DNA of 10,504 nucleotides from an archaeon (GTDB lineage: Archaea > EX4484-52 > B79-G9): assembly GCA_043813875.1 (NCBI GenBank), contig JBDRKP010000047.1, positions 1-10,504 of the forward strand, written 5' to 3'. Within the stretch, counting starts at the first letter, position 1. Every line of letters starts with the position of its first letter. Positions 845 to 10,504 of the stretch are shown one piece after another. The notes beneath the pieces are model-generated. The model ran no database searches. It was not told the origin of the DNA and was given only the letters and a program-made list of their open reading frames with translations. The position numbers and the translations under genes are program-made.

Positions 845-863
845 TTAAAAAACAATTTTTAAA
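845..863 (+). promoter_or_regulatory. Putative TATA-type promoter with overlapping inverted repeat upstream of hicB
   Basis: TTTTTAAA at 856-863 about 35 nt before ATG 899, inside the inverted repeat TTAAAAA-N4-TTTTTAA (845-862). Confidence 0.4.
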
Positions 864-898
864 TGGTTTGGCATGTATTTAATATGCGTGGTGGTTAT

Positions 899-1138
899 AT
901 GGTACCAAAAGAAAAATTGCAGTTCCCGGTATTTATAGAAAAAGATGAAGATGGTTTTTTCGTCGCTGAATGCCCTGTTCTTGAAAGCTGCTTTACGCAG
1001 GGGCAAACTTTGGATGAGGCACTCAAAAACATAGAGGAAGTTACAGGATTGTGCGTAGAAGAAAAAAGAGATGAAGTTCTGTCTCACATGCGAAAGGCAC
1101 AAGACTTTGGATTTCATACAGTGGCGATTAATGTATGA
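899..1138 (+). CDS. hicB: HicB-family antitoxin (short form, no DNA-binding domain)
   Basis: FPVFIEKDEDGFFVAECPVLESCFTQGQTLDEALKNIEEV is a typical HicB pattern. ATG 899 follows GTGGT; stop overlaps the hicA start (ATGA). Confidence 0.88.
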   Translation: MVPKEKLQFPVFIEKDEDGFFVAECPVLESCFTQGQTLDEALKNIEEVTGLCVEEKRDEVLSHMRKAQDFGFHTVAINV

Positions 1139-1267: not shown

Positions 1268-1303
1268 ATGACCCGTTTAATGACCCGTTTAATGACCCGT
1301 TTA
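1268..1303. repeat. Perfect 12-bp tandem repeat x3 (ATGACCCGTTTA)
   Basis: Units at 1268, 1280 and 1292. On the minus strand this is (TAAACGGGTCAT)3 and the first TAA is the stop codon of the AlbA gene. Confidence 0.95.
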
Positions 1304-2689
1304 ATTTATCAACTCGTAATACACTCCTCTACCGGTTTTCCCGATTCTTTTAATTACGCCCTTGGACAATAAGCCCGCAATATCACGTTTAGCTGTTACA
1401 GCAGAGCACGCACAAATATTTGCATATTCTTCCCTCTTAATTGTTCTATGTTCAGCTAAATACCCGACAGCCTTTCTTTGCCTGTCATTTAATTCAGCTT
1501 TAATTTCAGGCGCTTTAGTATAATAATCCGGGTTCCTGAACACAATCCCGAAATAACCGGTCTGCTCCACAAACACAGGATGCGGCAGGTTATATTCGTC
1601 ACAAAATTTATTCATCCTCAATATTCCTGTCCCTCTTTTATCCATAAGTTTCCTTCTGGAAAAAACAGTTGCAATAGTCTCATTTCTGCTTTTAGGGCTA
1701 TAAGTTAAATCCAGTAACTGGCTGATTGTCAGCGGCCTCAAAAGCTCTCCGGGACTCCATATCTCCACCCTGTCATCAAACATTTTAATAAGAACAGATT
1801 CCCTGATATGATAATCCCTGTGAACAACAGCATTTATTATTGCCTCCTTCAAAGCCTCAATAGGGTATTCTGTCTTAATTTCTGTTTTAAACCCCTTTGG
1901 AGTATACGAAGTTCTCATGTTTCTTAGCATAAATTTCCTTGCATCATCAACCAATGCAAAAGCATCGCCCTCGAGATCAGCCCTGTCAATCCACATAGAG
2001 ACATCCAGTCCTTTATACCTGTCAGCCCTTATGATTGTAGACGGCATCTCTAAAGAAGGATGCTTCCCAAACAAAATAAGTCCTGCGATTGTTGGAATTA
2101 ACTTTCCGTTTTCCCTGGCAACAAGATGCTCTTTCTCTATTAACTTAAAAAAATCATCCTCATCCAGCTTCCCGGTCAATTTGCTCTCACTGAAATACTC
2201 CTTAACCTTCACAAGATCAACATCATCAAGAGTCGCATTTTCAACAGGATACGCATCCTGCGACTTCTGCGACCCTTCCCTATATAACCGTGCAATCTCC
2301 TCCTTATTGGCAGGCATATTAGAAGATCCGATCCTCACCCTTGGAACATGCTCCCCTCGAACAAAATAAGGCGTATTCTCACCCTTTGGGCAATGAGCCA
2401 CAACAAAATCCCTGCCCTCGAACTTCACAAACTCAATCTCCGGCTCACGGTCAAGCTTACACCAGTGCCTGATTATCTGCACAAACTTATGCTCTGTCTT
2501 CTCTGCATCATCAAGCCCGATTGGCTTTCGGGATTCATCCTCAACACCAACAACAATCTTACCGCCCCTTGAATTATAAAACGCTAGAACAAGCTGCGCA
2601 ACCTTCTTTGCATCAGGCAGCTCAGACTTAAAATCAAGATCCTTATTTTCCTTTTGTGAAAGCATCAGTTTAAATTCATTTTCATTCAT
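1301..2689 (-). CDS. Schlafen/AlbA_2 domain + HATPase_c_4 (RecG C-terminal-like) + C-terminal winged HTH protein, ~462 aa
   Basis: N-terminal ENKDLDFKS..LAFYNSRGGKIVVGVED (AlbA_2), central EYPIEALKEAIINAVVHRDY..FDDRVEIWSPG..RGTGILRM, C-terminal LNDRQ..TAKRDIAGL..GKTGRGVYY. Start moved to ATG 2689 because a TATA box lies 24 nt upstream. Confidence 0.9.
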   Translation of the reverse strand: MNENEFKLMLSQKENKDLDFKSELPDAKKVAQLVLAFYNSRGGKIVVGVEDESRKPIGLDDAEKTEHKFVQIIRHWCKLDREPEIEFVKFEGRDFVVAHCPKGENTPYFVRGEHVPRVRIGSSNMPANKEEIARLYREGSQKSQDAYPVENATLDDVDLVKVKEYFSESKLTGKLDEDDFFKLIEKEHLVARENGKLIPTIAGLILFGKHPSLEMPSTIIRADRYKGLDVSMWIDRADLEGDAFALVDDARKFMLRNMRTSYTPKGFKTEIKTEYPIEALKEAIINAVVHRDYHIRESVLIKMFDDRVEIWSPGELLRPLTISQLLDLTYSPKSRNETIATVFSRRKLMDKRGTGILRMNKFCDEYNLPHPVFVEQTGYFGIVFRNPDYYTKAPEIKAELNDRQRKAVGYLAEHRTIKREEYANICACSAVTAKRDIAGLLSKGVIKRIGKTGRGVYYELIN

Positions 2690-2720
2690 GCGAATACATA
2701 ATGCATGCGAATTATTTAAA
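2687..2720 (-). promoter_or_regulatory. TATA box and direct-repeat pair at the AlbA gene start (likely leaderless)
   Basis: Minus strand TTTAAATA at 2713-2720. 9-bp direct repeat CATGCGAAT at 2687-2695 and 2704-2712, one copy overlapping the start codon. Confidence 0.5.
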
Positions 2721-2746
2721 TCAGGCGCTGCATGAACCCGCGCACA

Positions 2747-3376
2747 CACTCCGGCAAAGCCGCATGGGTGGAACCCGCCAAAATAGAGAGCAGGAGAAGC
2801 GGGAATATCCTCCGGACGCTATAAGAGAAGCTGTTGTAAATGCTTTGATACATAGGGACTATCGCGAACCTTCGGAAGTGAAGATGTTCATATTCGACAA
2901 TCGTCTGGAGATTACAAATCCAGGCACTTTTCCAAAAGGCGCAACACCCGATAATCCGGTACATAAACCCAGGAATCCGCTTCTATGCGAATATATGAAG
3001 GACATCCATTACATAGAGAAGTATGGCTCAGGAATCTATCTGATGCAGAAGCTTTGCAAAGAGTGGGGAATCGGAAAGCCGGAATACACACTTGACAGGT
3101 ACTGGACAAAAATCGTTTTTAAGCCAAGTAAGGCAGGCATCTTATTGTCCGTTATAAGGAAGGAAGGAAGGGATAGGTATAAACGAAAGGCAGACTGCTG
3201 CCGTAAATTATGTGCTTGAACATAATTCGATTACAAACGAGGAATACCAGAAAATAAACAATATTGGTCGGACAACTGCAAAGCTTGATCTGAAAGATTT
3301 GGCTGAAAAGGGCCTGCTTGAGCCCAAAGGCAGGGGAAAGGGCACGTATTATGTGATAGGCGCGACCATAAAATGA
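2747..3376 (+). pseudogene. Second 3' remnant of an AlbA_2/HATPase_c_4/wHTH gene, two frameshifts
   Basis: HSGKAAWVEPAKIE, shift at ~2789, QEKREYPPDAIREAVVNALIHRDY..FDNRLEITNPG..PRNPLL..IEKYGSGI, shift at the (AAGG)4 tract, GINERQTAAVNYVLEHNSITNEEYQKINNIGRTTAKLDLKDL..GRGKGTYY, TGA 3374-3376. AlbA domain missing. Confidence 0.88.
3156..3171. repeat. (AAGG)4 microsatellite at a frameshift
   Basis: Removing one unit gives VIRKEGIGINERQ and rejoins the HATPase and wHTH frames. Confidence 0.85.
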
Positions 3377-3393
3377 CCATAAAATGACCATAT
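3364..3393. repeat. 11-bp tandem repeat (GACCATAAAAT) x2 plus partial third unit
   Basis: Units at 3364, 3375 and 3386, spanning the TGA stop of the remnant gene. Confidence 0.9.
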
Positions 3394-3409
3394 TTGATGA
3401 AAAGACTGT

Positions 3410-3627
3410 AGGCAGGGATTGAATGAGCGGCAAGTCAAGGCCGTACTGTATGTGAAGGAGAAAGGGAGAATAACAAACAGGGAGTACCAGAAATCGAACT
3501 ATGTTTCAAGGCAGACCGCATCAAGAGAACTGTCATCCCTTGTTCAGGCAGGCGTACTTAATCAGGTAGGCATGACCGGGAAAAGCACATTTTATGAACT
3601 ATCTCAAATGCCTCACAAACGCCTCAG
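3410..3627 (+). pseudogene. Isolated C-terminal winged-HTH remnant of a third AlbA-family paralogue
   Basis: GLNERQVKAVLYVKEKGRITNREYQKSNYVSRQTASRELSSLVQAGVLNQVGMTGKSTFYEL. Ends in two 11-bp units (AAATGCCTCAC 3606, AAACGCCTCAG 3617), then joins unrelated DNA without a stop. Confidence 0.82.
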
Positions 3628-4574
3628 ACTGACATTCCTCATCCCTTCACGCGCCCGCGAAATACTTCGGCGCCCTCCTCTACGCCATAAACCCGTTCGT
3701 CTACGCGCGCTTCCTTGCCGGCCACATCAACCTCCTGCTCGCCTACGCAATAACCCCTCTGGCTGTCATCTATATCATGCGCTTCGCAAAGGCGCCGGAC
3801 AAAAAGAACACCATCCTGACCGCCCTCATAATCACCGCAACAGGCATCCTCAACATCCACAACCTCTTCCTCACGCTCGTCATATTCTTCGCCATTATCT
3901 GCGCAAGACCAAAAAAACATCACATCATCCCCGCCCTGAAAGTCCTCGCCATCGTCCTTCTCCTCAACTCCTACTGGCTCCTGCAGGAGCCACAGCAAAA
4001 AATATCGACAATCACAGAAGACGACATCTCCGTCTTCCGCTCAAGGCCCACGGACGGCTTCAACGCCGCCTTCACCCTCGCATCCATGCACGGCTTCTGG
4101 AGAGGCGGCTACAGCTACGCAAAAGACCGCATCCCGTACTGGCCCATCCTCTTCATCATCATCCTCTTCCTCTCGGTCCACGGCTATGTCATCTCAAAAG
4201 ACGAATACAGGAACGCCTTCATGATGCTGTGGATAATATCGCTCATAATCGCCGCAGGAGTCACCATAGGATACACAAAAGGCATATATCTCTTCCTCTA
4301 CGACAACATATTCTTCTTCAGGGGCTTCCGCGAGCCCCAGAAATTCATCGCCCTTGCGGCTTTGGCCTACGCCTACCTCGGCAGCCTCGGGACAGAAAAG
4401 CTGGGGAAAAAAGGCTACATCCTCATCATCCTCCCCGTCATATACTCGTACACCATGTTCTTCGGCTTTTCAGGCGCCCTCCCCGCCCAGGACTACCCAC
4501 AAGACTACTACGACATAGACGCCTACTTAAACAACGACAAAAGCGACTTCAACACCCTAGTCCTCCCCTGGCAC

Positions 4575-4632
4575 CAATATCCTCAAGCAGACCTGCCTTG
4601 AGGATATGGCAAAGCCATTGGCTTTGACAATA
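4575..4632. mobile_element. Miniature palindromic insertion: 48 bp between CAATA direct repeats (53 bp net)
   Basis: CAATA at 4575-4579 and 4628-4632. Stems ATATCCTCAAG/CTTGAGGATAT (4577-4587/4597-4607) and CAAAGCCA/TGGCTTTG (4610-4617/4619-4626). Deleting 53 bp restores WHQYMDYSWN. Confidence 0.75.
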
Positions 4633-4784
4633 CATGGACTACTCATGGAACAAAAACAAAGACAAGAGACTGGCAAACGTAGCCCGCTCATTCTTCAAAA
4701 AACCCATGATAACAGGCGACAACATGGAAACAGGAGGAATCTACACAAGCAGCAACAACCCGGGATCAGGATACATAGAATCGA

Positions 4785-5239
4785 TAATAACCCGGAACAC
4801 AACCAGTTTAGGCCAATCACTCGCAAAAATAAACGTAAAATACATCCTCCTGAAAAAAGAAGTAGACTACGAGCCCTACAAAAATCTTTTAAACAACCAG
4901 ACAGACATCACATTGATAAAAAACACCACAAACCTCCTGTTATACATCAACATCATCCCCACCTACAAAATCTACCAGACAGGCGGCGAGGACATAACCC
5001 CATTAGCCTACGAAAAGATCAAAGACAACCACTACACCATCACCCCGCCCGAAAAAAAATACGTAGTCCTCGCAGACACATACAGCGACTCATGGACCCT
5101 TGGCGCATCAAAGAAACTCGATAACCACCCCACAAACATCTGGGAATACAGTAAAGACACGGAAATAAAAAAGACATCCGGCGACATCGGATACGTCATC
5201 TCGATAATGACGCTCCTCATCATCATATCATTCTCCTGA
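4785..5239 (+). repeat. Copy A of the dispersed direct repeat (3' end of the membrane protein gene)
   Basis: 50 bp identical to copy C (4903-4952 = 7539-7588), 49 bp identical to copy B (5102-5150 = 6477-6525), and colinear with copy D. Confidence 0.95.
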
Positions 5240-5282
5240 TCACAAAACAACAGCTTTAGTCTTTATGTTCCGCCAACAAAGC

Positions 5283-5328
5283 CGCAAAAGGTTTATATAT
5301 GTACGGGCAAATGAATATTTGCAGGTGA
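5283..5328 (+). promoter_or_regulatory. Archaeal promoter (BRE + TATA) and SD for the antitoxin/RelE operon
   Basis: CGCAAAAGG followed by TTTATATA (5292-5299); AGGTGA at 5323-5328 before ATG 5333. Confidence 0.7.
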
Positions 5329-5332
5329 TAAT

Positions 5333-5545
5333 ATGTCAGAAGCAGATACATTAAAAGATATCAAAGAAGACCTGAATTTCCTTAAAACTAAGATACTGGA
5401 GATAGAAATAACAGTAAACGAGATTGATTCAGATATGCATAAAACACCGAATCCGGATTATATAAAGAGACTGGAAAATATTGAAAAAGAAGACAAACGC
5501 ATTCACTTCAAAAATATAGCCGTATTCGACAAGCATTTCGAATAA
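5333..5545 (+). CDS. Putative antitoxin paired with RelE-type toxin (coiled-coil N-terminus, DUF2683-like C-terminus)
   Basis: 70-aa charged protein with SD, directly upstream of the RelE-type toxin; PNPDYIKRLENIEKE segment resembles archaeal RelE partners. Confidence 0.65.
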   Translation: MSEADTLKDIKEDLNFLKTKILEIEITVNEIDSDMHKTPNPDYIKRLENIEKEDKRIHFKNIAVFDKHFE

Positions 5546-5562
5546 TATTCCGGTGACTCTTT

Positions 5563-5823
5563 ATGCCTTATGAATTTGAGATCACAGAAACCCTGGACCG
5601 GAAATTCAAAAAAATCAAAAAAAAGAACCCCGTCTTGTTTTCAACATGCCGCAAAAAAATAATCGAAATAATAGAGAATCCGCACCATTATAAGCATCTG
5701 AAATATGAGAACCGTTTCAGGGTGCATGTCGGCGGCTCATATGTCATGACTTACAGGATTCATGAAAACAGGCAGGTTGTCGAATTTCTTGATATAGAGC
5801 ATCACGATTATGCTTACATGTAG
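5563..5823 (+). CDS. RelE/ParE-superfamily toxin (mRNA interferase)
   Basis: 86-aa basic protein with IIENPHHYKHL..FRVHVGGSYVMTYRI..VEFLDIEHHDYAY; SD GGTGA at 5552-5556. Confidence 0.85.
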   Translation: MPYEFEITETLDRKFKKIKKKNPVLFSTCRKKIIEIIENPHHYKHLKYENRFRVHVGGSYVMTYRIHENRQVVEFLDIEHHDYAYM

Positions 5824-5911
5824 TCCGGCATCGGCAATCGCGTGACATTAGCAGTAACATTTTGAACAATAATGCTTGTTAGCTAAAAATCAGACATTAT
5901 CCGTTCTCACG

Positions 5912-6075
5912 AAAAAAAGTGCGATAGAGCGCATAGCTCTCTCGTTCGGCCTCTCCATCGCGATAGTGCCGCTAATCGTATTCTACCTGAACTGGCTCTT
6001 TTCAATAAAGATAAACCTCATAAACTCATCAGTCACCATACTCGCAATCTCAGCAATTGGCTACTATCTCTCAAG
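5912..6075 (+). pseudogene. Fragment of a DUF1616-like archaeal membrane protein gene
   Basis: IERIALSFGLSIAIVPLIVFYLN followed by a second hydrophobic helix. No convincing start; the rest of ORF 5876-6292 appears to be read-through. Confidence 0.6.
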
Positions 6076-6193
6076 AAATCAGTCTGCCCTAAAGGATTAT
6101 ATCAAAAGGATCAAAAAAAGCCTAAAAATCAAAGCGATAAAATCCCATTTGCTTGGGTATGAAGAGCAAGCAAAGCTTGCCACCCCAAGTGGC

Positions 6194-6272
6194 ATGATTC
6201 GACGACCGCACCATCGAAAAGCAGATAGAAGAGACCAAAAAGCGCCTCATGAAGCACGACAAGAAGAGATAA
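6194..6272 (+). repeat. Copy F: small remnant resembling the extended C-terminal tail of copy C
   Basis: MIRRPHH, frameshift, IEETKKRLMKHDKKR* aligns with ILRMPHHPSKEARNRIMAHDEENR (7849-7920). Confidence 0.5.
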
Positions 6273-6427
6273 ACTCCTCCTATTTTCTGTGATTTAACTA
6301 GCTCCCACGCTCAAGTAAAAACAATCTGCAAGAAATCCTGTAAGATTAAGCCCGATCATACCGCAAAATCTTCAATCGCCACAAATAAAAGACAAAAAGC
6401 AGACAAAAGATGTGTATATATCTTCCG

Positions 6428-6602
6428 GGAAAAGTACATCGTCCTCACAGACACCTGCAGCGATGCATGGACCCTCGGCGCATCAAAGAAACTCGATAAC
6501 CACCCCACAAACATCTGGGAATACACAGGAGACACAGAAATAAAAAAGACATCCGGCGACACCGGCTACATCATCTCGATAGCAACACTCCTGCTCATCA
6601 TC
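6428..6602 (+). repeat. Copy B (short) of the membrane-gene 3' repeat
   Basis: EKYIVLTDTCSDAWTLGASKKLDNHPTNIWEYTGDTEIKKTSGDTGYIISIATLLLII matches the last ~58 codons of copy A. Confidence 0.95.
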
Positions 6603-6637
6603 CCCCGCAAGAGAAAATGATCGCCATCACATATTTA

Positions 6638-6907
6638 TCAGGAATCTTCAGAATCAAGATATAGTCAATCCAATAACTATTAGATTATTGGATTGAGTAT
6701 CCTGAGCTATTTTGAAAACTTGTTTTTCAAAATAAGCAAGTTTTCAACCTCAGTTGAAAAGCTTCGAACGCTAGTGAGATGATTTTCAATTTCGCAAATA
6801 AACTTGCGAAATGCTCGGGAGCTTGCCACATAGTGGCAAAGATATGGGAATCCAACATGAGTTCAAAAGTTGTTGGATTCACTGTAAATCATCAAGAATA
6901 TCTGATG
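6638..6907. repeat. Array of ~9 abutting and nested inverted repeats
   Basis: Stems: 6638-43/6700-05, 6644-48/6656-60, 6665-76/6685-96, 6708-18/6724-34, 6741-48/6753-60, 6789-97/6804-12, 6813-16/6819-22, 6823-29/6833-39, 6848-57/6871-80, and a bulged stem at 6890-6907. Confidence 0.9.
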
Positions 6908-6910
6908 CAT

Positions 6911-7141
6911 CTATTTCATAAGCTCTATGAATTTATCCACAGTGATATCTGCATCCTTAAGAATGCTCTTCAAAAGCTTAGGATGCAGTATTTTTTCCGA
7001 ATGATGTGGGACAGTGACTCTTTTACCATCTTTATTTTTGTATATCTTGTGGCTGCCGCTCTGCCTTACCATAGAAAAACCCTGACTGATCAAAACCTTG
7101 ATGACCTTGCTCGCAGACACCCTCGGAAGCTTCCCAATCAT
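6911..7141 (-). CDS. hicA: HicA-family toxin
   Basis: KLPRVSASKVIKVL..GF..VRQSGSHKIY..VTVPHH..LLKSILKDA; catalytic GSH intact. Confidence 0.93.
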   Translation of the reverse strand: MIGKLPRVSASKVIKVLISQGFSMVRQSGSHKIYKNKDGKRVTVPHHSEKILHPKLLKSILKDADITVDKFIELMK

Positions 7142-7362
7142 ACCGTCACTTCCAGTGTAGTCAGGCTGACAGACTCAACCGGAGTAAATTCCTCCTTATC
7201 CTCTATCCTGTCCTCGATATGAAGGCGGATAGCATCCTTGATATTCTCCATGGCTTCCTCATAACTATCCCCCTGGGAATAACAGCCAGAAAGCTCAGGA
7301 CAGAATGCAAAATAACCATCAGCATCCTTTTCAACAACTACCGAAACACGGAATTGGCTCAT
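7138..7362 (-). CDS. hicB: HicB-family antitoxin (short form)
   Basis: VVVEKDADGYFAFCPELSGCYSQGDSYEEAMENIKDAIRLHIE; SD AGGTGA (7367-7372, minus); ATGA overlap with hicA. Confidence 0.93.
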   Translation of the reverse strand: MSQFRVSVVVEKDADGYFAFCPELSGCYSQGDSYEEAMENIKDAIRLHIEDRIEDKEEFTPVESVSLTTLEVTV

Positions 7363-7403
7363 AATTTCACCTTTTACTCTCTACAAATATCCATATCTAT
7401 TCA

Positions 7404-7416
7404 AAAATATAAACCT
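7404..7416 (-). promoter_or_regulatory. TATA box for hicBA
   Basis: Minus strand AGG-TTTATATT (7406-7413), same form as the RelE-operon promoter. Confidence 0.6.
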
Positions 7417-7420
7417 ATCT

Positions 7421-7870
7421 ATGACAAAAAACACAGCCGCATTAGGCCAATCACTCATAAAACTCAACATAACATACATCCTCCTAAAAAAAAGAAGTAG
7501 ACTATCAAACCCTGCGAGCAACTCCTGAACACCCGGCAAGACATCACATTGATAAAAAACACCACAAACCTCCTGTTATACATCAACAACAACCCCACCT
7601 ACAGGATCTGCCAGACAGGCGGCGAAGACATAACCCCCCTAGCCTACGAAAAGATTAAAGACAACCGCTACGTCATCACCCCGCCGGAAAAAAAGTACAT
7701 AGTCCTCGCAGACACATACAGCGACTCATGGCCCCTCGGCGCATCAAAGAAACTCGATAACCAGCCCATAAACATCCGGGAATATACAGAAATACAAAAG
7801 AAATCCGGCTACGTCATCTCGATAATCACATTCATGTATCTTCTTCTCATTTTGAGAATGCCTCATCATC
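7421..7870 (+). repeat. Copy C of the membrane-gene 3' repeat (pseudogene fragment)
   Basis: MTKNTAALGQSLIKLNITYILLKK, two +1 shifts (A8 run at 7486-7493 and ~7506), then DITLIKNTTNLLLYINNNPTYR..GYVISIITFMYLLLILRMP. Confidence 0.95.
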
Positions 7871-8090
7871 CATCGAAAGAGGCCAGAAATCGCATCATGG
7901 CACACGATGAGGAAAACAGGCTTCAAGGAGGCGAACTTCTCATGCCACAGCAGCAGCAAGTGATGTCTCAGTCGCGATTGGTATTGACACGTCCTTCTCA
8001 GAATCTTTGAGATCAAGATGTATTCTGACAAGTATCATGTTCGGCTTATTATATATATATAATAGTATATATAAAACATCCCGGAACACG

Positions 8091-8149
8091 CCGCATACAT
8101 CACATCGGCAATCACATACCTATACCTTCTCATGATCTTAAGGCAGCCC
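8091..8149 (+). repeat. Copy E: remnant of only the C-terminal TM-coding segment
   Basis: AYITSAITYLYLLMILRQP aligns with GYVISIITFMYLLLILRMP (copy C) and AYIISIMT (copy D). Confidence 0.6.
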
Positions 8150-8309
8150 CGCGCAGGAACCCGCCCCATGGCCCGCGGCAGAATGCGGACGATTCTGCGC
8201 CGGCGTCCCGCGCAGTCTGGGCGCTGCGTGGAACATAAGGAAAATTTCGGCAATGCATCATCCGCATGTTAAGATAAATTGACGGCTGTATAAAAAATTT
8301 AACAGAAGC

Positions 8310-8340
8310 TTTATAAATATGTAAACATAATTTTACATAT
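8310..8340 (+). promoter_or_regulatory. TATA box plus palindromic operator for MNT-HEPN (likely leaderless)
   Basis: TTTATAAA 8310-8317; perfect inverted repeat ATATGTAAA-N6-TTTACATAT (8317-8325/8332-8340) overlapping ATG 8339. Confidence 0.72.
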
Positions 8341-8851
8341 GTTAAAACTTTTTGACGATTTGGAGCCGTTTTTCACGGACAATTACAGGAGAATCAATGT
8401 ACGCGAATATGCAAGGATCATGAAAACAACACCCCCGACAGCGTCAAAATTACTTGCATACTACCACGAAGAAGGGCTCCTCAACAAAGAGGAAGACAGG
8501 AATTATATATTCTATGCGGCAAACAATGAAAGCTTTATGTTCATACACCTCACCAGGGCATACTGGCATCTTAGACTTGAAAAAGCAGGCATCAAAGACT
8601 ACCTCGAAAAAGAACTCATATCCCCGCTCGTGATACTCTTTGGCTCCTGCTCCAAGGCAGAGATAAAAAAAGATTCTGACATAGATATTGCGATATTTGC
8701 ATCATCACAAAAAAACATCAGCTTAGAGATTTTTGAGAAAAAACTTAACAGGAAAATACATCTCTTCCAGTTCAAAAAAAGAGATGATATAGGAAACCCG
8801 GAATTACTGAACAACATATTAAACGGCTTCATACTCATGGGAGGATGGTAA
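8339..8851 (+). CDS. Minimal nucleotidyltransferase (MNT) antitoxin with N-terminal winged HTH
   Basis: INVREYARIMKTTPPTASKLL (HTH) and LFGSCSKAEIKKDSDIDIAI (GS-x10-DxD, Pol beta NTase motif). Confidence 0.9.
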   Translation: MLKLFDDLEPFFTDNYRRINVREYARIMKTTPPTASKLLAYYHEEGLLNKEEDRNYIFYAANNESFMFIHLTRAYWHLRLEKAGIKDYLEKELISPLVILFGSCSKAEIKKDSDIDIAIFASSQKNISLEIFEKKLNRKIHLFQFKKRDDIGNPELLNNILNGFILMGGW

Positions 8852-8852
8852 T

Positions 8853-9263
8853 ATGGACTGGACAGCATGCGTAAATAAATCCCTTGCAAAAAAAGCAAAA
8901 ACAGATACAAATCTATTGATATCTCTTAAAAAATCATCCGCAAAAAAGCTTGAAAGCGAGAGGCTGCTCGTGCTAAATGACACAACTGCGGCATCAAAAG
9001 TAAGCCTCGCTTACGATGCGCTAAGAGAGATACTGGAATCTCTTGCAATAAAAAACGGTTACAAGATATACAACCATGAATGCTACACGGCGTTCCTCAA
9101 GGAGATAATGAACGAATCGGCGATTGCAGACAAATATGACAGATTCAGAAAAATAAGAAATGCAATCAACTACTATGGCAAAGACATCACACCAGGCGAG
9201 GCAGAACCTGTTCTTGCAGAAATCCGCGAACTTGTTGAAAAAATAAACAGCCTCCTTGTTTAA
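8853..9263 (+). CDS. HEPN-domain toxin
   Basis: AYDALREILESLAIKNGYKIYNHEC..YDRFRKIRNAINYYG; starts 1 nt after the MNT stop. Confidence 0.85.
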   Translation: MDWTACVNKSLAKKAKTDTNLLISLKKSSAKKLESERLLVLNDTTAASKVSLAYDALREILESLAIKNGYKIYNHECYTAFLKEIMNESAIADKYDRFRKIRNAINYYGKDITPGEAEPVLAEIRELVEKINSLLV

Positions 9264-9282
9264 GATGAACACATAATGTAGT

Positions 9283-9703
9283 GAATCCACACTCGAACAG
9301 AACACGACAGGACTTGGAAAACTCCTTGCCCCGCTCAACATAAAATACATCCTCCTAAAAAAAGAAGCAGACTACGAGCCCTGCAAAAATCTTTTAAACA
9401 CCCAGGAAGACATCACGCTCATAAAAAACACGACAAACCTCCTGTTGTACATCAACAACAACCCCACCTACAGGATCTACCAGACAGGCGGCGACGACAT
9501 AACACCCTTAGCCTACGAAAAGATCAGAGACAACCGCTACACCATCACCCCGCCCGAAAAAAGATACATAGTCCAGACAGACACATACGACAACACATGG
9601 ACACTTGGCGCATCAAAAGACCAGCCGACAAACATCTGGGAATACAGTAGAGACACAGAAATAAAAAAGAGATCCGCATACATCATCTCGATAATGACAC
9701 TTC
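9283..9703 (+). repeat. Copy D of the membrane-gene 3' repeat (open frame, no natural start)
   Basis: ESTLEQNTTGLGKLLAPLNIKYILLKKEADYEPCKNLLNTQEDITLIKNTTNLLLYINNNPTYRIYQTGG..AYIISIMTL; in-frame TAA at 9274-9276 just upstream. Confidence 0.95.
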
Positions 9704-9813
9704 AACTCACTGGCAAAGATAGCATGGAAAAACAGCCATATCCCCGCACAAAAATATATCGGTTCTCATCGCAGGCATAGAAATAAAAATAACGCAGTCA
9801 TATATACTTCCAG

Positions 9814-10368
9814 GTGGTAACTACGGTGGATATAATAGGGATCACAGACGACCTGTATATAACGCCTGTCGGCGGATTCTACAGCGAGACTGATATTGAG
9901 CACCTGGATGGCCTGGCATTTGAAAAGTACCTGACAGACCCATTCACAGGCGAAAAAAAATATGCGGTCATGGTAGCCGCGATGGACGTAGTCGGGATAA
10001 ACAAGCACATATTAGACTCATTCAATGCTGGCATAAAAGAAGATAACCGTTATATTCTTGAACACGGCATCAGGAAGACACCTCAAAAGACACTTGATCC
10101 CGGTGCGATCGTATATGTCCGGGACAACCGTCCATTCTTTTTTAGGAAACCCCTCGAGCTGGTAGAGATATGTCCGGACGCAGCACATTATGATCAGTCA
10201 TTTTCCGGCGCAATCCTTCCATATAATTACAGTGACCTTTACAAGGTGGACGGCGATATCACAATCAACGCGACATTACCGCATTTGCTGGAGAGATCCG
10301 CTGCCAGTCTGCCTCCTCCTTTCAGTGATATCGGCATCAACACACATATCCACAAGCCAGACATCTAG
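9814..10368 (+). CDS. Hypothetical protein, probably 3'-truncated by IS630
   Basis: 184-codon ORF with globular composition, no recognised motif and an uncertain GTG start. Its TAG stop is formed by the TA target plus the first base of the IS end. Confidence 0.55.
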   Translation: MVTTVDIIGITDDLYITPVGGFYSETDIEHLDGLAFEKYLTDPFTGEKKYAVMVAAMDVVGINKHILDSFNAGIKEDNRYILEHGIRKTPQKTLDPGAIVYVRDNRPFFFRKPLELVEICPDAAHYDQSFSGAILPYNYSDLYKVDGDITINATLPHLLERSAASLPPPFSDIGINTHIHKPDI

Positions 10369-10504
10369 TGACTCAGCAGTTTAATTGACTTACATAATGT
10401 TTAGATAACTTTCTATCTGCGTCTTTTCTGGTGAATCTCCAGTCGATTTTCTTTTTTTGTTCGTTTCTCTTATTAGTCCATGCTTCTACCTCTTCAATCA
10501 AAAA
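10368..10504 (-). mobile_element. Right end of an IS630-family insertion sequence
   Basis: Transposase C-terminus ends a few bases before CTAG (10365-10368), which contains the TA target typical of IS630/Tc1/mariner. Confidence 0.78.
10373..10504 (-). CDS. IS630-family transposase, C-terminal 43 aa (partial)
   Basis: FLIEEVEAWTNKRNEQKKKIDWRFTRKDADRKLSKHYVSQLNC* has the AW-x3-RN-x5-I-x-W-x-FT-x2-DA-x2-KL-x3-Y tail of IS630 transposases. Confidence 0.85.
   Translation of the reverse strand, partial: FLIEEVEAWTNKRNEQKKKIDWRFTRKDADRKLSKHYVSQLNC

Follow-up and report, generated by a model that had tools for sequence, protein, structure and literature searches.

Stacked 3' ends of a predicted GT-C glycosyltransferase gene interleaved with toxin-antitoxin modules in a DPANN-type archaeon

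The 10,504-nt stretch of DNA analyzed here (the window) is the whole of contig C47 of a 1.64-Mb metagenome-assembled genome (MAG) in 90 contigs (completeness 91.5%, contamination 0.55%), the host of which is a DPANN-type archaeon from groundwater. It carries five co-oriented copies (A, B, C, D, and E) of the 3' end of a gene that probably encodes a membrane glycosyltransferase of the GT-C type. All five are 5'-truncated and lie on the + strand, and predicted toxin-antitoxin (TA) modules lie between them. The stacking of displaced gene ends and TA cargo at this locus is real and unusually clean, and the locus is not an integron. The best reading, to which we give roughly an even chance, is that of a displacement or accretion array built at the 3' end of the GT-C gene by homology-anchored insertions.

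Gene families were called with Pfam, NCBIfam, PADLOC, and Atlas structure matches, and repeats with BLASTN and tblastn against the organism's own genome. Read support came from Logan contigs of four public runs (X1-X4), which are groundwater metagenomes holding parts of the window at a depth of 2-3x; none of these contigs spans the whole window, and some of the runs are possibly the source sample. The relatives compared were three genomes (G004, G005, and G006) and two metagenome contigs (L021 and L022). Genome sizes of relatives from the same order are ~0.5-2.2 Mb, and the closest Atlas clusters of the HEPN-like protein encoded in the window are from Woesearchaeota/Nanobdellota.

Gene ends without heads

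The intact paralog of the repeated gene is on contig C44 (2093-3871, - strand) and encodes 591 aa. Its N-terminal domain matches Pfam GT-C_AftD (PF11847; 35.1 bits, cutoff 26) and the protein matches NCBIfam MmpA (1e-41; 143 bits, under the family cutoff of 210), which points to a multi-pass membrane glycosyltransferase of the GT-C type. A C-terminal domain with a hydrophobic anchor at its end makes up the last ~200 residues. The two GT-C pieces of the window matched no Pfam family and were assigned through their 70-73% identity to the C44 paralog. An AlphaFold2 model of the 201-aa tail domain of copy A, made from five sequences, was unusable (mean predicted local distance difference test score of 36.8).

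Using the intact 591-aa protein as a tblastn query, we found residues 1-87 once in the genome and the 3' end at seven places: A, B, C, and D in the window, C44a and C44b (the latter runs off its contig), and C37. Two more short remnants, E and one on C63 (~23713-23880), make nine tail-derived pieces genome-wide against one intact head. Each fragment retains the 3' end and none consists of a head only. BLASTN of the tail DNA against the same genome, a search proposed by the original prediction for this DNA, gave seven matches, the neighbors of which are tabulated (Table 1). The polarity was compared with that of other genes by a census in which 979 open reading frames (ORFs) of at least 200 aa were searched against the genome and internal positions outside long ORFs were counted. 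This gave 19 tail-only and 13 head-only fragments. Upon removal of four GT-C rows and two rows of a second family, AlbA_2, the counts became 13 and 13, and the tail-only polarity is therefore specific to the GT-C and AlbA_2 families.

What the tails contain is the conserved portion of the gene (57-83% amino-acid identity). Repeat finding gave two direct families (4778-5077, 7414-7713, and 9283-9582; 5055-5226, 6430-6601, and 7691-7862), and in BLASTN comparisons, where the repeat in A spans 4778-5239, identity was 86.6% over 172 nt for A-B, 83.3% over 418 nt for A-C, 84.6% over 383 nt for A-D, and 81.2% over 382 nt for C-D. The longest exact match between tails is 50 nt. Near 7480-7500 tail C has two insertions of 1 nt each, past which its frame stays open for 120 codons, and it reads through the normal stop position; tail D has no stop or frameshift across 143 codons. 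All nine pieces keep a stretch of ~24 nt (the GYIISI.T codons), just beyond which homology falls; this stretch also encodes residues that are invariant across species. A 9-nt deletion is common to C and D, and a Tyr-to-Cys change is common to B and C37.

Synonymous divergence (dS) among the in-genome tails is 0.3-0.75 and exceeds 1.2 against other species of the genus. The ratio of nonsynonymous to synonymous divergence (dN/dS) is ~0.3-0.4 (A-D 0.38, A-C 0.39, and C-D 0.38, the last over 111 codons). In a 111-codon tree A, C, D, and C44b were not separated (supports of 30-43); the A branch was very short, C44a had the longest in-genome branch, and the outgroup sequences formed one clade (support of 91) joining beside C44b. 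The purifying dN/dS values together with the in-genome clustering indicate that most of the tail divergence arose in working genes, within this lineage or close relatives, to which the orphans belonged until recently, and that the tails are neither old dead copies drifting in place nor imports from distant donors. Exchange between tails is also suggested; the 44 informative sites among them show nine of the ten possible two-against-three splits.

The homology of copy A begins at residue 88 (~3651), where it adjoins part of an AlbA_2-family gene that is unrelated to it. Where its membrane domain borders on its tail domain, a 53-nt insertion introduces both a stop and a shift of frame, just before the Met that opens the 201-aa ORF. 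The RNA fold of the insertion has a z-score of -3.7. The same insertion is present in paralog C44b (C44 ~10915-10967) with three differences in 71 nt, compared with ~12% divergence elsewhere; no further full copies were found in the genome, and one X4 contig skips exactly these 53 nt. The insertion could mean that the gene is split yet still works, or it could be a very small mobile element or a mark that gene conversion has spread. A bulge-helix-bulge intron was considered and rejected, as the fold consists of two plain hairpins with no such motif. One contig from X1, with 93% identity to copy A (15 differences in 210 nt), continues upstream of 3655 with YALVPTTST, which resembles residues ~80-88 of the GT-C genes of relatives, and an A-like copy with an intact head therefore exists in that sample.

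The truncated tails are not products of assembly. Exact (zero-mismatch) Logan contigs cross five junctions of tails with cargo or flank: from B into the hairpin cluster (6507-6787), from the end of C into the DUF2283 fragment (7859-8093), from E into MNT (8077-8394), from HEPN into D (9230-9447), and from D into its flank (9508-9808). As these contigs run from HEPN into the truncated start of D, the truncated tails are real. The parts free of Logan cover include those from the A stop to 5282 and from F to B.

The row continues beyond the window. The window ends in part of an insertion sequence (IS), which from its C-terminal sequence, read without a score, we take to be of the IS630 family. 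The complete copy on C62 (~11787-12996) has a frameshifted transposase, C63 ends in the left end of the same IS (23900-24037), and C46 and C82 end in the same IS end too. The element is inserted right at the stop codon of ORF184 (the TAG within CTAG). Up to 10369 the contigs from X3 and X4 are identical to the window, after which they carry 63 and 45 other letters, the 30-nt consensus of which occurs only once in the genome, at C63(-) 23898-23869. In the X3 and X4 samples the window therefore runs straight into the reverse complement of C63 without the IS, and the insertion is polymorphic. Past this junction C63 has the tail remnant (G), which is the sixth in the row after A-B-C-E-D, then a 171-aa ORF, and then a 438-aa CARDB-like secreted protein. 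In G005 a single intact 627-aa gene is directly followed by a gene for a 444-aa secreted protein, which resembles the 438-aa C63 protein (31% over 123 aa, E 1e-10). From this weak protein similarity, the row A-B-C-E-D-ORF184-remnant appears to stand between the gene and its probable ancestral downstream neighbor. In its last ~50 aa ORF184 is similar to the ORF next after the intact paralog (C44 1816-1959; tblastn E 0.002, 45% over 51 aa).

Toxin-antitoxin neighbors and other cargo

A TA gene lies within 600 nt of eight of the nine tail pieces of the genome (Table 1) and beside four of the five tails found in relatives, in keeping with the enrichment beside other tail copies that the original prediction called for. 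The neighbors of the tails in the window are complete TA pairs of unrelated families; the RelE/ParE, HicAB, and MNT-HEPN modules of the window are TA pairs as predicted from their family matches. Matches to Polbeta (19), HicA (5), and ParE (4) total 28 in the 1.64 Mb, and five of them are on C47 and C44, which make up 1.3% of the genome. The association of TA genes with tails is clear, with the proviso that the comparison is post hoc and that adjacent pieces are not independent. No Pfam toxin domain was found in the tails.

The order of elements given in the original prediction (A, antitoxin and RelE-type toxin, DUF1616 piece, F and B, hairpins, hicBA, C and E, MNT/HEPN, D, and an orphan ORF) agrees with the Pfam matches and repeat coordinates, BLASTN places all repeats on the + strand as it had stated, and its short spacings were also recovered. 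A stretch resembling a B recognition element (BRE) and TATA box begins ~44-53 nt past the A stop, 52 nt separate the hicB start (7362) from tail C, and the HEPN gene ends (9263) 17-20 nt before tail D. The TA modules seem to carry promoter-like sequences of their own.

Among the relatives, the tail of G006 is followed by ParE/RelE-like genes, and G004 has a lone ~60-codon tail with a DUF2683/ParE pair 481 nt away; no full GT-C gene was found in G004, which is an 81%-complete MAG. In L021 a HEPN gene is 5 nt from the tail and is followed by MNT, and in L022 a HEPN-like fragment is followed by MNT. The tails of L021 and L022 are 58-59% identical to A, and both loci read tail, convergent HEPN/MNT, and a second GT-C piece from ~residue 203, which in L021 is fused to a C-terminal anchor remnant. 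G005 has no TA gene beside its tail; an MNT/HEPN pair with 67-90% protein identity to the C44 pair lies upstream of the gene. The relatives carry at most one full GT-C copy. The cargo differs between the genomes, so the identical order in all relatives that the original prediction had named as evidence against it is not found.

Several assignments call for comment. The RelE/YafQ/ParE-type toxin also matches NCBIfam YafQ (3.1e-12), under the cutoff of that family, and the C37 gene matched by the DUF2283-type fragment is Pfam DUF2283 at 6.7e-10. The MNT protein matches PADLOC PDC-M05A (8.5e-12), and with its partner makes up both components of the candidate defence system PDC-M05. By sequence, the partner gave no Pfam match at E<0.01, no likeness to the HEPN protein of C44, and PDB matches at E of at least 0.3; its description as HEPN-like comes from the Atlas structure match and from PADLOC PDC-M05B.

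The hairpin-repeat cluster has copies that are 73-98% identical on at least 10 other contigs (C13, C17, C28, C30, C33, C44, C53, C61, C69, C77, and C87) and looks like a family of miniature inverted-repeat transposable elements (MITEs). Contigs from X2 and X4 carry a variant of the cluster that skips 162 nt and has 19 other letters instead. An apparent joint of 6700 to 6863 was traced to a further copy of this repeat.

The left half of the window contains the AlbA_2 family, the second family with orphan tails: a full gene and three 5'-truncated copies, two of which lie in tandem directly upstream of copy A. The full gene matches PADLOC models associated with prokaryotic Argonaute (pAgo) at 1.9e-22. 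The tandem stack contains a direct repeat, D8 (3230-3265 and 3470-3505). On C37 a GT-C tail lies directly upstream of a full AlbA_2-family gene (1287-2672). The ends of this 3-kb contig share an identical 120 nt with each other and with two further contigs (C37 1-120, C37 2922-3041, C38 1-120, and C24 10519-10638); this may be an assembly-graph node or a repeat, and C37 may be a bubble or a small circle. The lone HicB-like gene at 863-1138 has an 80% identical DNA copy at C63 16175-16551, beside which there is a hicA gene (C63 16057-16551 region).

Table 1 Features of the window and tail pieces elsewhere in the genome, with the closest TA gene of each tail
Feature	Position	Strand	Evidence or extent	Closest TA gene
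AlbA_2/HATPase_c_4/helix-turn-helix (HTH) gene tail, C-terminal 138 aa	163..579	-	HATPase_c_4 1.2e-12, profile positions 24-88; tail-only in census	
HicB-like antitoxin, no hicA beside	863..1138	+	Pfam HicB_lk_antitox 1.1e-6	
Full-length AlbA_2 (Schlafen-like)/HATPase_c_4/HTH gene	1301..2749	-	Pfam 7.8e-23, 4.5e-19	
AlbA_2-family tail stack	2701..3640	+	Pfam; census row C47 2803-3355	
Stack piece, HATPase_c_4	2701..3219	+		
Stack piece, HTH	3212..3376	+		
Stack piece, second HTH	3419..3640	+		
GT-C copy A	3651..5239	+	tblastn with intact paralog; residues 1-87 absent	RelE operon, 94 nt
Copy A, residues 88-387	3651..4580	+	Three-frame reading	
53-nt insertion with two hairpins	4575..4627	+	Alignment; flanked by CAATA direct repeat	
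Copy A, tail ORF (201 aa)	4634..5239	+	Three-frame reading	
Antitoxin candidate	5333..5545	+	DUF2683, Pfam 0.0018 (weak)	
RelE/YafQ/ParE-type toxin	5563..5823	+	Pfam ParE_toxin 6.1e-7, 30.4 bits (cutoff 23)	
DUF1616 membrane-protein gene, internal fragment	5876..6292	+	Pfam 1.4e-9, profile positions 63-150 of 307	
F	6258..6390	+	73% over 134 nt to flank just downstream of intact paralog (C44 2104-1972); own tail missing	
Tail B	6421..6617 (BLASTN 6430-6601)	+	Last ~60 codons, from ~residue 527	hicA, 294 nt
Hairpin-repeat cluster, MITE-like	6657..6892		Inverted repeats; copies elsewhere	
HicA	6911..7141	-	Pfam 1.1e-19, 70.8 bits (cutoff 27)	
HicB	7138..7362	-	Pfam 1.2e-12, 48.5 bits (cutoff 27)	
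Tail C	7414/7430..7862	+	From ~residue 436 to end	hicB, 52 nt
DUF2283-type antitoxin gene, C-terminal fragment	7931..8062	-	tblastx 61% to C37 242-373	
Tail remnant E	8078..8180	+	Last ~25 codons and flank; 84.5% to C63 23741-23823 (BLASTN), alignment, translation	DUF2283 fragment, 16 nt; MNT, 159 nt
MNT nucleotidyltransferase with N-terminal HTH	8339..8851	+	Pfam Polbeta 6.3e-9, 36.3 bits (cutoff 26.9)	
HEPN-like partner	8853..9263	+	Atlas structure, TM 0.94 to PF05168 cluster; PADLOC PDC-M05B 6.1e-9	
Tail D	9280/9283..9709	+	Open frame from ~residue 436; C-terminal membrane anchor lost	HEPN, 17 nt
ORF184	9814..10368	+	No Pfam, NCBIfam, PADLOC, or Atlas match	
Right end of IS630-like IS	10365..10504	-	100% identical to C62 12856-12995	
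Tail C44a				MNT, ~340 nt
Tail C44b				Doc, ~150 nt
Tail C37				DUF4258 toxin, 118 nt
C63 remnant				No TA gene found nearby

Origin of the row

In the displacement reading, DNA carrying the conserved GT-C 3' region plus neighboring genes would have recombined into the locus several times, with the conserved 3' region as the sole homologous anchor each time. The route could have been homology-facilitated illegitimate recombination (HFIR) or single-crossover (Campbell-type) insertion of a circular piece. Each event would install a new gene end and its cargo and push the previous end downstream as a promoterless 5'-truncated orphan, the result being the row A-B-C-E-D, then G on C63, with one or two small self-contained genes between successive tails. 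TA and defence-type modules would dominate the cargo as the most mobile and self-retaining small genes of these genomes, and ones already beside the GT-C gene in relatives. The tails would be by-products and not working genes, and no dedicated recombinase would take part. One-sided anchoring leaves a 5'-truncated co-oriented copy downstream of the new DNA and would therefore fit the truncation polarity. The original prediction had made the 0.4-kb tail a homology arm, and this stands as the simplest mechanism giving only 5'-truncated copies; we infer the recombination mechanism itself, the order of events, and any excision as circles.

A number of findings weigh against displacement by homology-anchored insertion. 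Copy A, the 'main' gene of the array, has no head, and there is thus no working recipient gene on C47. The in-genome tails group together and not with those of other species, a pattern that gives no evidence of outside donors. Statistical support for recombination between the tails was slight: a PHI-like test gave p 0.15, and a run test went from p 0.001 to 0.20 after contiguous nucleotides were collapsed. The 5' ends cluster, those of C and D lying within ~30 nt (7414-7430 and 9268-9283) and those of B, C37, and G004 within ~10 codons (6421-6430, C37 1003-1009, and L012 ~1671), while the upstream flanks in each cluster are unrelated. Such clusters with unrelated flanks are predicted by neither HFIR nor Campbell insertion and indeed are explained by none of the simple models. 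The two GT-C copies of C44 are separated by 6.4 kb that includes TA genes, and the downstream one is intact with its head; given this genuine tandem pair, simple decay could yield fragments. Comparators are also few: by profile search the GT-C tail is present in five of the 42 genomes of the order, and six proteins matched in a set of 5.8 billion. The contig search of other genomes gave one tail locus and that of metagenomes three.

The original prediction also proposed looking for hybrid junctions and circles, and supposed that TA cargo would penalize the loss of cassettes. A 507-nt X1 contig joins 9230-9447 to 7579-7867 (a D5'/C3' hybrid), as would be expected if the MNT-HEPN unit had formed a circle or been tandemly duplicated. 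This join falls exactly in the only 31-mer common to C and D, and presumably (we take the contigs to have been built with k=31) a mis-join in the assembly graph would fall at the same place. The hybrid is therefore evidence neither for nor against circles. Deletion-type hybrids between tails were absent from the four low-depth runs, which also speaks against repeated insertion by homology. An apparent joint of 7676 to 5052 was set aside because its 11 inserted letters match C44b, and we read it as a mis-laid paralog.

The main rival, which we regard as possible if on the doubtful side, is a decayed array of tandem paralogs, in which the whole gene was amplified, TA modules, MITEs, and IS elements were inserted, and deletions removed the 5' parts. 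Heads would have been lost preferentially since promoter-bearing head fragments would express harmful truncated membrane proteins. The tandem pair on C44 with its intact downstream copy is a genuine example of the starting state, the in-genome copies form a lineage-specific group, and the dN/dS of 0.3-0.4 is compatible with copies that have only recently lost their function. The graded truncation points (residues 88, ~203, ~436, ~527-538, and ~551) and the same debris from the AlbA_2 family in the left half of the window also fit decay. Set against these are the eight 5'-truncated pieces (A, B, C, D, E, C37, the C63 remnant, and that of G004) without a single head-only fragment, where the rest of the genome gives 13 and 13. 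Decay would further need at least six full 1.8-kb copies in a row, each losing at least 0.27-1.7 kb from the same side, whereas relatives have at most one full copy, and the cargo lies within 16-52 nt of the tail starts with little older debris between. If the locus is only decayed paralogs, it would be an ordinary junkyard island, and the exclusive survival of 3' ends would still need explaining. A retro-copy origin of the 5' truncation was rejected, since there is no reverse transcriptase (RVT_1) match in the genome and hicAB is on the strand opposite the tails.

Site-specific integrative elements of a tycheposon-like or integron-like kind, with an attachment (att) site in the last GT-C codons and a recombinase acting in trans, seem improbable to us. 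They would account for the 5' ends falling into classes (C and D; B, C37, and G004) with different upstream flanks within a class, for the ~24 nt kept in all nine pieces, and for cargo packed tightly against the tail starts. Tycheposon islands look alike, with partial tRNAs and older elements pushed inward (bioRxiv 10.1101/2020.12.28.424599). Three tyrosine-recombinase (PF00589) matches are present elsewhere in the genome, on C65, on C55, and a broken one on C40, and as the MAG is 91.5% complete an unassembled copy is possible. However, the recombinase that the original prediction suggested seeking nearby did not turn up: C47, C44, C37, and C63 (including its end that joins the window) carry no integrase. 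That the window holds no integrase, attC site, or tRNA was correctly anticipated, and no Rfam family was found in it either. The repeats are 75-450 nt long and 13-25% diverged without an identical core, and protein constraint explains the conserved 24 nt. When the flanks of all tails were read by eye, no common motif, attC-like motif, or palindrome was seen at the unit borders; the only inverted-repeat pair of at least 30 nt in the window is unrelated to the borders. The units of 0.4-1.5 kb are too small for autonomy, and no relative was found on viral contigs.

Two further explanations we consider very improbable. One is a silent-cassette store, of which pilS and the MgPa repeats are precedents, with the orphan tails as gene-conversion donors for an outward-facing C-terminal domain. 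The orphans do retain open frames and conserved residues, informative sites give conflicting groupings, and the 53-nt insertion making the tail a separate ORF is common to two paralogs. Yet the dN/dS of 0.3-0.4 shows no diversifying selection, the recombination tests were not significant after conservative correction, C is frameshifted, D has no anchor, B and E are very short, and the longer copy on C47 (A) is itself broken. The other, to which we likewise give very little weight, is an artifact of assembly or binning, in which alleles of several strains were strung together or foreign contigs were binned. The MAG was assembled from short reads into 90 contigs, the region is rich in repeats with an IS at its end, and the four public runs offer a depth of only 2-3x with no piece spanning the stretch. 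On the other side, the longest exact inter-tail match of 50 nt is short relative to a typical final assembly k, exact contigs cross five junctions including that from HEPN to the truncated D start, C47, C44, C62, and C63 belong to a single assembly graph by their IS copies and overlapping contig ends, and contamination is 0.55%.

A stronger version of displacement would make the GT-C 3' end a reusable docking site for defence and TA cassettes, served by no dedicated integrase or by one in trans. Units of tail plus cargo would loop out as circles between neighboring tails and re-dock at any paralog, and the 5' clusters would mark fixed left ends of the units. Taken jointly, these propositions strike us as unlikely. 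If true, the locus would be a homology-based functional counterpart of the integron in organisms that lack the usual mobile-element machinery.

Relation to known systems

There is little understanding of how DPANN archaea, with genomes of ~1-1.6 Mb and few recognizable mobile elements, acquire and rearrange their accessory genes. This locus keeps several successive changes at one site, and the pile-up of TA and defence-type modules at the end of a surface-glycosylation gene recurs in relatives. No description of arrays of this kind in DPANN was found in the literature searched, a limited full-text collection.

The original prediction likened the locus to integrons or to orphan Rhs arrays. Integrons also have a one-directional row of small cassettes with a repeated element and TA genes among the cargo, and TA modules occur in superintegrons. 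Unlike an integron, the row has no IntI, attI, or attC-like sites, its genes have promoter-like sequences of their own, and the repeat is a gene fragment, so that this half of the comparison falls for want of integrase and attC.

Campbell-type integration leaves a complete gene, the inserted DNA, and a 5'-truncated direct repeat, is reversible by loop-out, and is known mainly from plasmids and laboratory constructs. It gives exactly the order seen here; no circle or plasmid carrying the tail was found in this study.

Tycheposons (bioRxiv 10.1101/2020.12.28.424599) resemble the row in that partial 3' ends of the target gene are spread across the island, newer elements push older ones inward, and degenerate remnants are left. 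They stack at tRNA or transfer-messenger RNA (tmRNA) genes with integrases, whereas here the target is protein-coding and no mobility gene is in or beside the units. Their att sites are near-identical, whereas the partial copies here are long and 75-88% identical, and the units contain one or two genes.

The closest likeness is to the orphan arrays of Rhs, contact-dependent inhibition (CDI), and type VI secretion system (T6SS) loci, in which a longer copy heads a row of co-oriented, 5'-truncated ones, each retaining part of the conserved gene, and small gene pairs are set between these. Rhs loci are described as 'strings of orphaned 3' regions', and the same one-sided-anchor model is given for T6SS immunity arrays (PMC5361080). 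In those arrays the repeated piece is a core fragment that precedes a variable toxin domain, whereas here it is the conserved end of a glycosyltransferase; their cargo consists of immunity genes matched to the toxin tip of the orphan, whereas here it is self-contained TA pairs. The host here is a DPANN archaeon, and no functional pay-off of tail switching is evident. The locus thus works most like an orphan or displacement array in its co-oriented row of truncated copies, the part of the Rhs comparison that stands, but fails the toxin-immunity features of those families. If homology-anchored insertion is the true explanation, the locus would extend the logic of displacement arrays to an ordinary enzyme gene and to archaea, and would provide a PCR-testable site for gene flux in uncultured archaea.

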